Source: Nitrosospira multiformis
Lineage (GTDB): Bacteria; Pseudomonadota; Gammaproteobacteria; Burkholderiales; Nitrosomonadaceae
Length of the DNA: 64,000 bases
Assembly (NCBI GenBank): GCA_017306155.1
Contig: JAFKJB010000016.1
Coordinates: 17,382-81,381, forward strand
Direction of reading: 5' to 3'
Made by a program: the position numbers and the translations under genes. Positions 960-8,601 of this stretch are shown here, piece by piece. Position 1 is the first letter of the stretch, and each line of letters begins with the position of its first letter. The notes below the pieces were generated by a model. The model worked only from the letters and a program-made list of their open reading frames with translations, did not search any database and was not told where the DNA came from.

Positions 960-1697
960 TCAATGAACGTCCTTCCAGTATTCCTTCTTGAGGGCGTAAG
1001 TCAGTACCAGCATGAGGAACAGGAAGAGCATCACGATAATCCCGATCTGCACACGCTTGTTGGCCGCAGGCTCGCCCAGGTAAACCAGGAAATTCACCAG
1101 ATCGGCAACGTATGCGTCGTATTCCGTCTTGGAAAGCGATCCTGGTTTCGCGAGTGTCAATTCCTTTATTTCGTGTGTACCGCCGTGGCCGCCATCCTCT
1201 GATTTTACGTTGAGGACTTGCTCTCCCTGCAGTTCGTACAGCACATGGGGCATGGCGGCCTTGTCGAATACAAGGTTATTCCAGCCGGTTGCAGTGCTGT
1301 CATCCCGATAAAATTTTCTCAGGTAGGTATAAAGCCAGTCGGAACCACGGGAGCGGGCAATGACGGAGAGATCAGGCGGAGCTACGCCAAACCATTGCTT
1401 TGCTTCCTTCTTTGGCATCGCCACCGTCATGAGTTCACCGACTTTCTGACCTGTGAATATGAGGTTTTCACTGATCTGCGACTCGGTAAGACCGAGATCG
1501 CGCAGGCGGTTATAGCGCATGAAATCCGCACTGTGGCAGGACAGGCAGTAATTGACAAAAGTCTTTGCACCCCGCTGCAGGGACGCCATGTCCCTCGGCT
1601 TGATGGGCGCCGTATCAAGCGTTACTGCTGACTCGCTTGCAAATGCGACAAGTGGGGCCAGACAAAAAACAAATACGATGCTTTTAAGGTTTCTCAT
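960..1697 (-). CDS. petC: Cytochrome c1 of the bc1 complex
   Basis: Signal peptide, CLSCH heme motif, PPDLS, MPHVL, C-terminal TM ending KKEYWKDVH. Confidence 0.96.
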   Translation of the reverse strand: MRNLKSIVFVFCLAPLVAFASESAVTLDTAPIKPRDMASLQRGAKTFVNYCLSCHSADFMRYNRLRDLGLTESQISENLIFTGQKVGELMTVAMPKKEAKQWFGVAPPDLSVIARSRGSDWLYTYLRKFYRDDSTATGWNNLVFDKAAMPHVLYELQGEQVLNVKSEDGGHGGTHEIKELTLAKPGSLSKTEYDAYVADLVNFLVYLGEPAANKRVQIGIIVMLFLFLMLVLTYALKKEYWKDVH

Positions 1698-2941
1698 TAT
1701 CTCACCCTGGTCGGTTCAGGCTTGGTTTTATCGATCTTGCTGTACCACGGCATGAGAATGAAAAAAGCGAAATAGATTACCGTGAATATCTGCGCGAGCA
1801 ACGTGTAGAGGGGTGTGGGCGACTTCGTGCCCAGGTAGCCAAGCACAAGGACGCTGATGACAAAAAGTGTAAGGGCAAACTTGAAAATCGGCCCCTTATA
1901 CCGGATGGATTTCACCGGGCTGCGATCGAGCCACGGCAGCAGGGCAAAGATCGCGACGGAGCCGCCCATCAGTATGATGCCCCAGATCTTGGCCTCTATC
2001 CAGAGAAAGTTGACTGTAACCGCCCTCAGCATCGAATAGTACGGCGTGAAATACCATACCGGTGCGATGTGGTCGGGAGTCTGCAGCGTGTTGGCGGGAA
2101 TGAAATTATTGTACTCGAGGAAGTAACCGCCCATTTCCGGCATGAAGAATATGATGCCGGTAAACACGATCAGGAACACGACGACGCCGAAAATATCCTT
2201 TACCGAATAATAGGGATGGAAGGGAATGCCATCCACGGGGATGTGTGTCACGGGGTCCTTGTTGGCCTTGATCTCGATCCCGTCCGGATTGTTCGAACCT
2301 ACTTCATGCAGCGCCAGAATATGGGCGACCACCAGCACCACCAGCAGTCCGGGCAGGGTCACCACGTGATAGGCAAAGAAGCGGTTGAGCGCCGCATCCG
2401 AGAGCATGAAGTCGCCCAGAATCCAGTTCGACAGCGTCTGGCCGATCATGGGAATCGCACCGATCATGCTGATGATCACCTGCGCGCCCCAGTATGACAT
2501 CTGCCCCCAGGGCAGAATATAGCCGGTGAATGCCAGCATCATGAGGACGAAAAAGATGCCCATGCCGATGAGCCAGAGAAGCTCGCGCGGTTTGCGATAG
2601 GAGCCATACATCATCCCGCGGAACATGTGCAGATAGACGACCACGAAGAACATCGAAGCGCCGGTGGAATGCATATAGCGGATAATCCAGCCATAATTCA
2701 CGTCGCGCATGATATATTCCACCGAGGCGAATGCCATGCTGGCATCCGGCTTGTAGTTCATCGTGAGGAAAATACCGGTGATAAGCTGGTTCACCAGCAC
2801 GAGCATGGCAAGTGAACCGAAGTAGTACCAGAAATTGAAGTTCTTCGGCGCGTAGTACTCGCTGAGATGCGCCCTCCAGTTGGAGGTTAACGGAAATCGG
2901 GCGTCGATCCAGCTGATCATTGCCTCCAATCGCTTGCTCAT
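1697..2941 (-). CDS. petB: Cytochrome b of the bc1 complex
   Basis: RYMHSTGAS, YLHMFRG, PWGQMSYWG, PVWY (PEWY-equivalent). Confidence 0.97.
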   Translation of the reverse strand: MSKRLEAMISWIDARFPLTSNWRAHLSEYYAPKNFNFWYYFGSLAMLVLVNQLITGIFLTMNYKPDASMAFASVEYIMRDVNYGWIIRYMHSTGASMFFVVVYLHMFRGMMYGSYRKPRELLWLIGMGIFFVLMMLAFTGYILPWGQMSYWGAQVIISMIGAIPMIGQTLSNWILGDFMLSDAALNRFFAYHVVTLPGLLVVLVVAHILALHEVGSNNPDGIEIKANKDPVTHIPVDGIPFHPYYSVKDIFGVVVFLIVFTGIIFFMPEMGGYFLEYNNFIPANTLQTPDHIAPVWYFTPYYSMLRAVTVNFLWIEAKIWGIILMGGSVAIFALLPWLDRSPVKSIRYKGPIFKFALTLFVISVLVLGYLGTKSPTPLYTLLAQIFTVIYFAFFILMPWYSKIDKTKPEPTRVR

Positions 2942-5318: not shown

Positions 5319-6218
5319 TTACCGCTCCTGATGGAACTCTGTTTTGTCCGCGGTTTTCCGCCCGGACTTCTCTTTACCTGCCCAGTCGCGCGCGAATTGC
5401 CACGCCACCCGGCCATTGCGGGAACCTCGTCCCAAGGCCCAGCGCAGCGCCTCTTCCCGTATGCTGTCGTCCATTTTCTCTATGCTGAAGTAGGCAAGCC
5501 AGCGCGCCACAATACCCAGATACTGCTCCTGGTCGAAAGGATAAAAAGACACCCATAAACCAAAACGTTCCGATAGCGATGTCTTTTCCTCGACCGTTTC
5601 ACTCGGGTGAATCTCGCCGCCGATATGTCGCGTGTCCTGATTGTCTATCATATATTCAGGCATCAGGTGGCGCCGATTGGAAGTGGCGTAGACAAGCACA
5701 TTCTCGGACGCAGTGGCAATGGAGCCGTCGAGAACCACTTTCAGCGCCTTGTAGCCTGGCTCGCCGGATTCAAACGACAGGTCATCACAATAGAGAATGA
5801 AGCGTTCCGGACGCCGATATATCTTCTCCACGATTTCAGGCAGATCAATGAGATCGTGTTTTTCCACTTCGATGAGACGCAACCCGTCGTCTGCGTATTT
5901 ATTCAGCATTGCTTTTACCAGCGACGACTTGCCCGTGCCACGGGCTCCCGTAAGCAGCACGTTATTGGCAGGATGATGCCGCACGAATTGCCGTGTATTC
6001 TGGTCTACAAGATTTTTTTGACGCTCTATGCCCTGCAATGCCTCGAACGTGATGCGATCGGGATAGCGCACCGGTTCGATGATTCCGGTGCGTCCTGTCT
6101 TTCGCCAGCGGAAAGCCGCGGCATTCCAGTCCGGATCGGGCATGCCAGGATGCAGCAACTCCTCCAGGCGGGAGAGCAGGATTTCCGCCCGATCATATAA
6201 TTTGTCCCAATCGTTCAT
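5319..6218 (-). CDS. DUF815-type AAA+ ATPase
   Basis: Walker A GARGTGKS, FILYCDDLSFE, YATSNRRHLMPE, SLSERFGL. Confidence 0.88.
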   Translation of the reverse strand: MNDWDKLYDRAEILLSRLEELLHPGMPDPDWNAAAFRWRKTGRTGIIEPVRYPDRITFEALQGIERQKNLVDQNTRQFVRHHPANNVLLTGARGTGKSSLVKAMLNKYADDGLRLIEVEKHDLIDLPEIVEKIYRRPERFILYCDDLSFESGEPGYKALKVVLDGSIATASENVLVYATSNRRHLMPEYMIDNQDTRHIGGEIHPSETVEEKTSLSERFGLWVSFYPFDQEQYLGIVARWLAYFSIEKMDDSIREEALRWALGRGSRNGRVAWQFARDWAGKEKSGRKTADKTEFHQER

Positions 6219-6273
6219 GAACAGTCCTGAAATTGCTCGATTATACCCGTAAGAAATTCAGGGGTTCGACCAC

Positions 6274-6309
6274 GGAACTCACCATGGAACTCGCCATTGA
6301 ATTCGCTAC
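6274..6309. repeat. Three degenerate 12-bp tandem repeats
   Basis: GGAACTCACCAT / GGAACTCGCCAT / TGAATTCGCTAC in a divergent intergenic region. Confidence 0.6.
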
Positions 6310-6626
6310 GGTAGCTGGAAGGTACATCGAGAAAGACCAGGGTAAGCTTCGGGCAGTATCGGACAGTCCCTGTCACCGGTATCTGCCGCCGGAAGCCGGG
6401 ACAAGCGCATGATTTATGTGCGCTAACGAACGGAACCGCTCAGCTAAAAGCGCCATGATCTAGCGCGGTACGTCAGGCAGTTGTATAGTGCCGGATTCCT
6501 GGTTTCCGGTTCCGGTCGAACCGTAAAAACCAAGAAGATAAAAATCTTTGATGGATTTCAGCAATTGGCAAGCGTACGCTTTCCGGAAACTTCCTTTAAT
6601 TGAACAACCACTCAGGAGAATTCACT

Positions 6627-7187
6627 ATGAATAATATGCCCAGCAAAAAATCAATTATTTCCCTCGCGCTGGGGTCTGCTTTTGCTGCAACGCTTGGTAC
6701 TGCTTCCGTTGCTTCTGCAGGCGACAACCCTTTCGCTGCACAATTCCTTCAGAAAGGCTTCATGGTAGCGGACAGTCATTATGATGACAAAGGCGGATAC
6801 GGTGACGCGGGCGCCGGATATGGTGACAGGAAGGATGCCTACGGTGGCGACAAGAAGCATGGAGAAGGCCGCTGTGGAATGTCCATGGCGGACTCCGATA
6901 ATGATGGCAGGGTAAGCAGGGAAGAGCACGCCCGCCACGCTGAAATGATGTTTAACAAGGCGGATACCAACAGGGATGGGTATATCGATAAGGACGAGGC
7001 CAGCGCGATGAGGAAAAAATACCGCGGCCATGGCCATGGTTCCCGGTCCGGTGACCAATACGGTGGATCAGGTGACCAGTACCGCGGTAACCGCGATGGC
7101 GGCGTCGATGTGCATCGTTACCGCGAATATGGAGCGGGTGAGACCGTTCCACGTTATTTGCCCCACATGAGGACCATGGGCGAGTAA
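6627..7187 (+). CDS. Exported Gly-rich protein with HvfA-like leader, EGRCG motif and two EF-hands
   Basis: SD AGGAGA before ATG 6627; signal peptide then NPF...L.KGFMVA; EF loops DSDNDGRVSREE and DTNRDGYIDKDE. Confidence 0.8.
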   Translation: MNNMPSKKSIISLALGSAFAATLGTASVASAGDNPFAAQFLQKGFMVADSHYDDKGGYGDAGAGYGDRKDAYGGDKKHGEGRCGMSMADSDNDGRVSREEHARHAEMMFNKADTNRDGYIDKDEASAMRKKYRGHGHGSRSGDQYGGSGDQYRGNRDGGVDVHRYREYGAGETVPRYLPHMRTMGE

Positions 7188-7223
7188 AGCAATTCATCAG
7201 CGCTGACGCCAGTGGTGATTCCG

Positions 7224-7261
7224 CCTTGCCGACAACCGGTTTTAACCGGTTGTCGGCAAGG
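7224..7261. terminator. Perfect 18-bp inverted repeat between convergent genes (probable bidirectional terminator)
   Basis: CCTTGCCGACAACCGGTT-TT-AACCGGTTGTCGGCAAGG; no long U tract. Confidence 0.55.
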
Positions 7262-7362
7262 TTGTCCTGCTGCGGAATGATAGGGCACCGGTGTTTATAT
7301 CTTATTATCTTCCTACCCGGTTGCAGTGCTGCAGACAGCGACATACGTACTGGTTGCTGGTA

Positions 7363-8601
7363 TCAGCTCCGATACTCGGCGTTGATCTTTACATAATCGT
7401 AAGACAGATCGCAGGTCCAGACAGTGGCTGCAGCCTGTCCTCTATTCAGCGCGACACGCACGGTAATTTCCGATTGTTTCATCACCCGCTGTCCCTCCTT
7501 CTCCTCGTAAGCGAAAGCTCTCCCCCCGTTTTCCGCAACCAGTACATCGTCGAGATAAAGTTGCAGCTTGTTGATGTCAAGCGCTTCTATGCCTGCATAG
7601 CCGATGGCGGCCAGTATTCGCCCGAGATTGGGATCTGAAGCGAAGAACGCTGTTTTGATCAGGGGCGAGTGCGCAATCGCATAGGCAACCTTGCGGCATT
7701 CCGCCACGGTTCTGCCACTTTCTATCTGGATTGTGATGAATTTGGTCGCGCCTTCGCCATCGCGCACGATTGCCTGCGCAAGTTCCACTGCGACACCGGT
7801 TATCGCATCCTGCAATTGCATAAACTCGGGGCTATTCTTATTTACGATGGGTGCGTGAGCGGCGCGTCCGCTGGCCATCAGAATGAATGCGTCATTGGTG
7901 GAAGTATCGCCGTCCACCGTGATGCAGTTGAATGAATGGTCAGCGGCGTGCTGGACCATGTGTTCCAGCAATGCGTTGCTTACGGCGGCATCGGTTGCGA
8001 TAAAACCCAGCATGGTGGCCATGTTCGGACGAATCATCCCCGAACCCTTGGCAATTCCGGTAATTGTCACGGTTACACCATTGAGGGAAATTTGCCGGGA
8101 TGCCGCCTTCGGGACAATATCGGTTGTCATGATCGCTTCAGAGGCGGCAAACCAGTTATCGGCTCCAAGATCGTTTATTGCCCCCGGCAAGCCGGTAACG
8201 ATTTTCGGGAGCGGCAAGGGCTCCATGATCACGCCGGTTGAAAAAGGCAGTACCTGTTCAGTGGCGCACCCGAGCAGCCGGGCAGTCTCGGCGCAGGTCG
8301 TGCGGGCATCTTCTATGCCCCTTTCGCCGGTGCCGGCATTGGCGCATCCCGTATTGATGACAAGGGCACGAATAGAACCATTTGAATCGAGGGACGAGAG
8401 ATGTTCCCGGGCGACTATGACCGGCGCTGCGCAAAAATCATTCTGGGTAAACACTCCCGCCACTGCCGCACCGTCATCCAGAACGATGACCAGCAGGTCC
8501 TTGCGCTCCGGTTTCCTGATGTTGGCTTCCACTGTGCCCAGGGTGAGGCCTTTTATGGCCAGGAGCTGTTCGGGCAGGGCAGGTGTAAAGTTGACAGGCA
8601 T
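7363..8601 (-). CDS. argJ: Ornithine acetyltransferase / N-acetylglutamate synthase
   Basis: [51 protein letters not shown]. Confidence 0.97.

Follow-up and report, generated by a model that had tools for sequence, protein, structure and literature searches.

The window considered here is a stretch of 64,000 nt from Nitrosospira multiformis (genome assembly of 3.02 Mb, 98% complete), and all coordinates refer to it unless a contig or locus is named. A gene at 6627..7187 of its forward strand (P0001; 186 amino acids and a stop codon, with the frame intact) codes for a protein in which a leader and a single EGRCG core of the HvfA type precede a pair of EF-hands. HvfA-type proteins are precursors of peptides that are made by ribosomes and modified after translation (RiPPs), and we are highly confident, from profile comparisons, that the window protein is homologous to this HvfA/EGKCG class. 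As judged by sequence comparison, the protein is specific to Nitrosospira, comes from a monocistronic gene and is paralogous to the EF-hand precursor of an hvf operon on contig C10 of the same genome. Modification of its cysteine in trans by the HvfB/HvfC pair of that operon would be the mechanism that we consider most likely, with slightly more confidence than doubt. This reading builds on the architecture of the protein, its paralogy with the operon precursor, the homology of leader and core, the co-occurrence with hvfBC throughout the genus, and the strong conservation of the core.

The hvf Operon of the Same Genome

The initial annotation had seen no DUF692 gene beside the window gene, and this holds: a profile search of all contigs finds a single multinuclear non-heme iron-dependent oxidase (MNIO, PF05114) in the whole genome, on contig C10, and the window gene is flanked by a DUF815 ATPase gene and by argJ. 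The DUF692/DUF2063 genes that it proposed to seek elsewhere are one hvfB and one hvfC, both on C10. The MNIO is assigned to HvfB by NF003818 (428.5 bits, cut-off 360), and the HvfC gene (NF050145, 261 bits, cut-off 142) follows, the order of the operon being precursor, hvfB, hvfC and methyltransferase.

The window gene has a single paralog in the genome, the precursor gene of this operon (C10:101528-101902, 138 amino acids), which lies directly upstream of hvfB. The two proteins are 37% identical (E 3e-25) in an alignment that covers the signal peptide, the NPF..L..Y.VA leader, EGNCG and both EF-hands. The window thus holds a stand-alone copy of the precursor gene that belongs to the operon. 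Both proteins have a signal peptide, an NPF leader, an EGxCG motif, two EF-hands and a terminal His/Met motif in the same order, and the PHGxMKK that ends operon-encoded paralogs is related to the C-terminal motif of the window protein. The operon paralog differs in its EGNCG core, in a short YADRVDPNKYG spacer, in having no His/Gly tail, and in adjoining the maturase genes.

The last gene of the operon, for a class-I S-adenosylmethionine-dependent methyltransferase (L004 5167..5913 (-), contig C10), overlaps hvfC by 17 nt. Its counterpart follows hvfC in four other Nitrosospira species as well (L010, L041-L043), and none was found in the ~2 kb downstream of hvfC at the Nitrosomonas-like loci inspected. 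From its position, the enzyme could add a further modification to the precursor, such as S-methylation. In many hvf operons of the Nitrosomonadaceae, another EF-hand precursor is encoded in tandem, with three EGxCG units ahead of its EF-hands and KCG on the C-terminal side (for example, L010 4752..5135 (-), L042 1150..1530 (+), L043 1185..1637 (+), L034 and L035); this copy has been lost from the window genome.

Kinship with HvfA-Type Precursors

Similarity of the leader to HvfA models had been anticipated in the initial annotation, and only the broader part of this expectation stood. An NCBIfam hmmscan of the window protein gave no match to an HvfA model at E values up to 10, and NF050137 (KCGExKCG_twice) and NF050188 were without a match in searches of the whole genome, which counts against the reading proposed here. 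We attribute the miss to the single EGxCG motif of the window protein. Relatives with more motifs do pass NF050137, with 20.8 bits (L015) and 20.7 bits (L034) against a cut-off of 19.5.

At the profile level, in contrast, the similarity of the leader is clear. Canonical precursors were obtained by reading the regions upstream of hvfB: in the Nitrosomonas-like sister genus (g3), the open reading frames (ORFs) directly upstream of this gene are canonical EGKCG-repeat precursors with the leader NPFAMNELSGGYMQLA, and they pass NF050137 with 37-66 bits. When a profile of 96 sequences of the stand-alone (orphan) family was compared by hhalign with five such hvfB-adjacent Nitrosomonas precursors, the probability was 97.6% and the E value 3.2e-12. 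The aligned span, orphan residues 5-85, comprises the signal peptide, the NPF leader and EGxCG, so that the signal peptide of the window protein is itself alignable with those of canonical HvfA-type precursors, and an NPFxxxxLxxGYMxxA leader motif is common to both groups. Together with the paralog upstream of hvfB/hvfC, this result bears out the central proposal of the initial annotation, that an HvfA/EGKCG-type leader and core are fused to an EF-hand pair away from any MNIO gene.

EF-hand proteins with three EGxCG units adjoin hvfB in other Nitrosomonadaceae, and one of them passes NF050137; by their sequences, these precursors link the chimaeras that have a single Cys to the canonical peptides with EGKCG repeats. 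A homolog search seeded with a Nitrosomonas protein from an MNIO-less genome returned further EF-hand chimaeras only and no canonical HvfA.

The core can also be read in the light of the work on FonBC, which forms a 5-thiooxazole (PMC13097082). In that system, Arg15 and Arg16 of the MNIO hold the Glu at position 1 of the motif, with Asp249 as catalytic base and Phe250 in contact with the motif residues Lys3 and Gly5; FonBC tolerates a change of Lys3 to Arg, and motif position 5 needs a small residue. The residues named are selectivity determinants in MNIOs of the 'Lys-Cys' type (PMC13097082). The HvfB of the window genome has the matching residues, Arg15-Arg16 and Asp251-Phe252. Given this match and the E-G-R-C-G of the core, nothing in the core argues against processing.

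Distribution and Conservation in Nitrosospira

A homolog search with the window protein gave 118 proteins, annotated only as EF-hand domain-containing or hypothetical; those with an organism name all belong to Nitrosospira or Nitrosovibrio. The survey of the family took in 121 sampled genomes. All 43 from the window's genus have hvfB and two or more EF-hand/EGxCG paralogs, and the stand-alone copy was found in each of these Nitrosospira genomes. The stand-alone type forms a clade of its own (109 rows, Shimodaira-Hasegawa-like support 96).

Conservation of the segments was taken as the mean frequency of the commonest residue in 90 orphan-type sequences. The core (residues 77-88, KxGEGRCGMSMA) is the most conserved segment (0.93), followed by EF loop 2 (0.91), EF loop 1 (0.88) and the leader motif (0.78); the His/Gly tail (0.41) and the spacer (0.36) are far more variable. 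With the core as the most conserved segment across orthologs, the sequence features of the protein are not a matter of chance. Residue by residue, in 96 sequences, P35, F36 and G44 of the leader are invariant and Q39, L41, K43, M46 and A48 are kept in at least 90%; in the core, K77, E80, G81, C83 and G84 are invariant. The same holds for H104 and for D113, D117, D121 and E124 of EF loop 2, while H101 and M108 between the loops and H180, M181, M184 and G185 near the C-terminus reach at least 90%. EGRCG is the motif in 115 of the modules found, and every full-length homolog retains the Cys.

The spacer differs in length among orthologs by units of the YGD(R/K)KD type. About 30% of the orthologs have a second Cys directly after His104 (ARHC[DEQ]MMF, position 105), where the window protein has Ala. 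In some orphan-type homologs (P0025, P0029, P0030 and P0039), the whole module of EGRCG and two EF-hands is duplicated.

Proposed Mechanism and Relatives without a Maturase

According to the mechanism that we propose, the window protein would be an exported periplasmic protein of two modules, the first an HvfA/'captophorin'-type RiPP leader with a single EGRCG core, and the second a Ca2+-binding EF-hand pair, with a disordered tail of His, Gly and Tyr and the conserved His/Met C-terminus behind it. Before Sec export, the complex of HvfB (the MNIO) and HvfC (the partner with a RiPP recognition element) would bind the shared NPF..L..GYMxA leader and, acting in trans, oxidize Cys83, the presumed site of modification, to a 5-thiooxazole. 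Cleavage of the signal peptide would then leave a single heterocycle that binds Cu, placed five residues ahead of EF loop 1, in a Cu site possibly completed by His101, His104, Met108 and the C-terminal His/Met residues, and the mature periplasmic protein would bind both Cu and Ca2+. Copper binding by the window protein, like any coupling of its Cu and Ca2+ sites, is something that we infer.

The main rival of trans-modification is a protein that needs no maturase, that is, an EfhP-like periplasmic Ca2+-binding or Ca2+-buffering protein whose tie to an MNIO precursor is one of descent only. In such a protein, the thiol of Cys83 would ligate a metal together with nearby His/Met residues, or would form a disulfide, either between subunits or with a second Cys. 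We see this as a possible, though distinctly less probable, account. The canonical EF-hands are strongly conserved, as it would require, the phenotypes of EfhP are Ca2+-dependent (PMC4053335), and the Cys at position 105 of some orthologs is a potential disulfide partner. On the other hand, a plain thiol ligand would need neither a RiPP leader motif nor the exact E-G-R-C-G context, which is more tightly conserved than the EF loops, and no genome with the orphan was found to lack HvfBC.

The relatives in genomes without an MNIO bear on both accounts. Among the family's genomes with an EF-hand match, 15 lack an MNIO, and these fall into three groups. Eight of them, from a sister genus with small genomes (g4), have an EF-hand homolog with Tyr in place of Cys (EDKYG, GGGEYG, GGGGYG and similar; L016-L020 and L022-L024, in G004, G012, G032, G036, G040, G044, G051 and G054). 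These homologs are of the operon type, with a YAD...YG spacer and an HGEMKK end, and the NPF leader has decayed in 7 of the 8. As sequences, they are natural unmodifiable variants. The change from Cys to Tyr and the decay of the leader fit the idea that Cys and leader are kept only for a maturase, which is suggestive, not decisive. The decay of the leader where the MNIO is absent also counts against a modification-independent role; the persistence of the Tyr-for-Cys proteins in these genomes, by contrast, implies that the scaffold has some role independent of the Cys, as the rival account would have it.

Several observations weigh against trans-modification and should be considered together. 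The eight Cys-to-Tyr cases may trace to a single ancestral event. A Nitrosomonas mobilis-like genome that is 99% complete (G084) has no MNIO and yet holds a protein with an intact leader, EGKCG and EF-hands, and in other MNIO-less Nitrosomonas genomes the equivalent position of His-rich EF-hand proteins is taken by a Cys of the HQCEH type. An unmodified Cys can thus be retained, as the modification-independent account supposes. Because hvfB is universal in the genus, its co-occurrence with the orphan cannot separate dependence from shared ancestry. The spacer between leader and core is longer and more variable in the orphan than in the operon copy. Moreover, FonBC left a one-repeat peptide unmodified in vitro, where it requires two repeats (PMC13097082), which again favours the rival; this caution is tempered by the operon-encoded precursor of the window genome, which likewise has a single motif. 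Finally, a conserved box upstream of the orphan gene (see below) was not found at the hvf operon of the same genome, so that common regulation of the two loci is not apparent.

The correlation between Cys and MNIO was considered as proof of modification and was not accepted, in view of G084, of the HQCEH-type proteins and of the possible single origin of the Tyr variants. The HQCEH-type proteins (L021, L025-L027 and L028-L031, Nitrosomonas-like) have a similar signal peptide and N-terminal region in genomes without MNIO, and show no relation to MNIO presence; LTXXQ/Spy-like periplasmic proteins likewise occur without MNIO in this set of Nitrosomonas-like genomes. At the G084 locus (L015), the EF-hand gene (1492..1848 (-)) is directly followed downstream by a gene (1012..1326 (-)) for a Cys-rich protein resembling the four-helix-bundle copper storage proteins, with a weak TIGR04401 match (E 0.2).

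Gene and Protein Features

The leader, the single Cys in EGRCG at 6864-6878, the two canonical EF loops and the Gly/Tyr/His tail repeats were all found where the initial annotation had placed them. The features described in this section lie on the forward strand. A Shine-Dalgarno sequence, AGGAGA, is read at 6614-6619, and GGAGAA is invariant at the same spacing in six orthologous loci; the ATG at 6627 is backed as start codon by this kept spacing and by the MNNMPSKK N-terminus of orthologs. Residues 1-31 (6627..6719) have the features of a Sec-type signal peptide by inspection and by a hydropathy window, with a KK n-region, an Ala/Ser/Leu h-region and a VASA|GD cleavage motif, and residues 9-32 are the sole hydrophobic stretch of the protein in this hydropathy window.

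The leader region, SLALGSAFAATL..ASAGDNPFAAQFLQKGFMVA, spans residues 12-48. Within it, the leader motif GDNPFAAQFLQKGFMVA (residues 32-48, 6720..6770) is the presumed recognition sequence for HvfC/HvfB, on the grounds of its conservation and its alignment with canonical precursors. A variable spacer rich in Gly, Tyr and Asp (residues 49-76, 6771..6854), the least conserved segment, separates it from the core KHGEGRCGMSMA (residues 77-88, 6855..6890). In the core, EGRCG occupies residues 80-84, and the codon at 6873-6875 is that of Cys83, the only cysteine of the protein.

EF-hand loop 1, DSDNDGRVSREE (residues 89-100, 6891..6926), is recognized by Pfam EF-hand_1/5/6/7 and has the canonical D-x-D-x-D-G...E ligand positions. 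The inter-loop helix HARHAEMMFNKA (6927..6962), with the conserved His101, His104 and Met108 of the family alignment, leads to loop 2, DTNRDGYIDKDE (residues 113-124, 6963..6998), also identified by Pfam. EF-hand_1 matches the protein in two stretches (E 2.7e-10, 39.5 bits, cut-off 25.4), as does EF-hand_5 (E 1.2e-8). Sequence matches in the PDB are generic EF-hand proteins. Weak partial matches to lanmodulin (NCBIfam NF053806, 25.1 bits with a cut-off of 135; PDB 6mi5, E 2e-5) might point to a lanthanide binder of that kind, which we think very improbable: they span only the generic EF-hand pair with a score far below the family cut-off, and the window protein has two loops instead of four, with no Pro at loop position 2 (DSDNDG, DTNRDG). 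Four EF-hands and a Pro at loop position 2 are the hallmark of lanmodulin.

The variable tail rich in His, Gly, Tyr and Arg (7032..7157) is poorly conserved and predicted by AlphaFold2 to be disordered. It contains the GDQYGGS/GDQYRGN repeat (7050-7091), which is evident at the protein level and differs in copy number among orthologs; Tandem Repeats Finder gave no DNA-level tandem repeat in the ORF, a two-copy GDQY repeat being too short for that program. The protein ends with the conserved motif PHMRTMGE (7161..7184; family consensus LPHMKPMGE). An AlphaFold2 model built on the alignment of 96 sequences has a mean predicted local distance difference test (pLDDT) score of 52 and is confident for the EF-hand pair alone (~residues 90-130, pLDDT 67-80), with helices at 98-112, which takes in the inter-loop helix, and at 122-133; the remainder is predicted to be disordered, and the quality of the model is inadequate for judging the proximity of the Cys to the His/Met residues.

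Locus and Upstream Box

The window gene is monocistronic, with the DUF815 ATPase gene divergent upstream and argJ convergent downstream, and this order is kept in 6/6 Nitrosospira loci inspected (the own genome and five others). A box of 23 nt, TTATGTGCGCTAACGAACGGAAC (6414..6436, forward strand), lies 213 nt before the ATG and is kept in the six orphan loci, which represent six species; judging from this conservation, it may be a regulatory site. Near-copies with 3-4 mismatches occur elsewhere in the genome at C14:154249(+), C20:64564(-) and C16:146107(+), against a calculated chance expectation of ~0.07 for copies with up to 4 mismatches. The genes or gene pairs downstream of these copies are a gene for a secreted beta/gamma-crystallin (Crystall_3, E 4.9e-25), a 123-aa ORF and nlpD-rpoS. 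The 123-aa ORF in turn precedes an ORF labelled PLD-like, a label that was not confirmed by domain search.

A perfect 18-bp hairpin without a T-run (7223..7262, no strand assigned; -48.5 kcal/mol, z -7.0) separates the orphan gene from argJ and may be either a repetitive extragenic palindromic (REP)-like element or a factor-dependent or bidirectional terminator. It has a weak match to Rfam psRNA14, below the gathering score, and arm-like copies elsewhere in the genome. An Rfam scan of 6150-7450 gave no match above the gathering score, and consensus scans for promoters and terminators at the locus did no better than on shuffled sequence.

The position of the gene away from the operon and its long, low-complexity segments, predicted to be disordered, might suggest that this duplicate of the operon precursor is decaying or silent and serves no function of its own. 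We find this hardly credible in view of the intact frame, the conserved Shine-Dalgarno sequence and upstream box, the fixed synteny in the six loci inspected, the presence of the gene in 43/43 genomes of the genus, and the invariant residues of core, leader and EF-hands.

Significance and Possible Function

The EF-hand/EGKCG architecture is already in print, both for the chimaeras described in 2025 (PMC12452194) and for EfhP. What is modestly new, in our opinion, is that the stand-alone copies across the genus form a syntenic clade distinguished by spacer, tail and LPHMKPMGE end, that this clade always accompanies the hvfABC-methyltransferase operon, and that relatives with Tyr for Cys are found in genomes without the maturase.

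Trans-modification by an MNIO can be tested cleanly here in a natural setting, with one maturase pair and two paralogous single-Cys substrates, one adjacent and the other stand-alone. The Cys-to-Tyr variants of the MNIO-less relatives provide natural controls. We know of no experimental proof so far of Cys modification in EF-hand-fused EGKCG proteins, or of a role of the thiooxazole beside an EF-hand. Should the stand-alone copy prove to be modified, a single HvfBC complex would serve several unlinked substrates, and mining based on gene clusters would undercount the EGKCG class of RiPPs. Such a result would further suggest that the handling of copper and that of calcium are connected in the ammonia-oxidizer periplasm.

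The key enzyme of ammonia oxidizers requires copper, and the link of the window protein to ammonia oxidation is circumstantial. A more ambitious reading would make the protein a Nitrosospira-specific periplasmic Cu buffer or chaperone, responsive to Ca2+, for the Cu-dependent machinery of ammonia oxidation. In such a protein, a single thiooxazole installed in trans at Cys83 may form a Cu site five residues from EF loop 1, together with His101, His104, Met108 and the C-terminal His/Met residues, and Ca2+ on the EF-hands may gate the affinity for copper or its release. Its control may be separate from that of the hvf operon, through the box shared with the gene of the secreted beta/gamma-crystallin, itself a Ca2+-binding fold. 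Taken jointly, we think that this whole picture is unlikely to be right.

Comparison with Known Systems

A literature search on Nitrosospira EF-hand proteins and on Nitrosomonas DUF692 gave nothing relevant. The closest published relatives are the EF-hand chimaeras treated as MNIO substrates in PMC12452194. These have an N-terminal signal peptide or transmembrane segment, then an EGKCG-type domain that is short, unstructured and free of 17-residue repeats, and on the C-terminal side two EF-hand_5 domains, and the family is genetically tied to MNIO and DUF2063 (PME-type 1) genes (PMC12452194). The same source reports that stand-alone precursor genes occur and may be modified from another locus, that there are up to 4 Buf_EGKCG genes per genome, and that 67 of 2583 genomes have no MNIO; no mention of a Nitrosospira member was found in its available part. 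Like these chimaeras, the window protein has a short, non-repetitive EGKCG domain followed by two C-terminal EF-hands, and the order that AlphaFold2 limits to the EF-hand pair agrees with the disordered N-terminal domains described there. The window gene differs in lying outside a gene cluster, within a monocistronic syntenic clade restricted to Nitrosospira/Nitrosovibrio, and its product adds the Gly/Tyr/Asp spacer, the His/Gly/Tyr tail and the LPHMKPMGE end.

EfhP of Pseudomonas aeruginosa (PA4107) belongs to the same chimaera class and is likewise exported or membrane-anchored with two EF-hands (PMC4053335; PMC9132961). It differs in that efhP is operonic with PA4106 (DUF692) and PA4105 (DUF2063). 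Operons of efhP, DUF692 and DUF2063 genes have been recorded, as well as some Pseudomonas homologs without those neighbours (PMC4053335). The phenotypes studied for EfhP concern Ca2+ and virulence, and no report of a modification of its Cys was found in these two papers (PMC4053335; PMC9132961).

For HvfA-type EGKCG peptides, the Cys modification has been reassigned from an oxazolone/thioamide to a 5-thiooxazole. HvfA/oxazolin of nontypeable Haemophilus influenzae and the 'captophorins' (PMC11252979; PMC13097082; bioRxiv 10.64898/2026.06.05.730506) resemble the window case in their Sec signal peptide, in a leader followed by an EGKCG-type core, and in the presence of HvfB/HvfC in the genome; HvfA and the window protein are also alike in that their Cys is predicted to become a 5-thiooxazole that binds copper. 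HvfA differs in its three AEGKCGEGKCG repeats with six modified Cys, in the lack of EF-hands, and in its adjacent hvfBC and DoxX genes, whereas the window protein, below NF050137 and NF050188, has one motif with Arg in place of Lys, set before an EF-hand pair.

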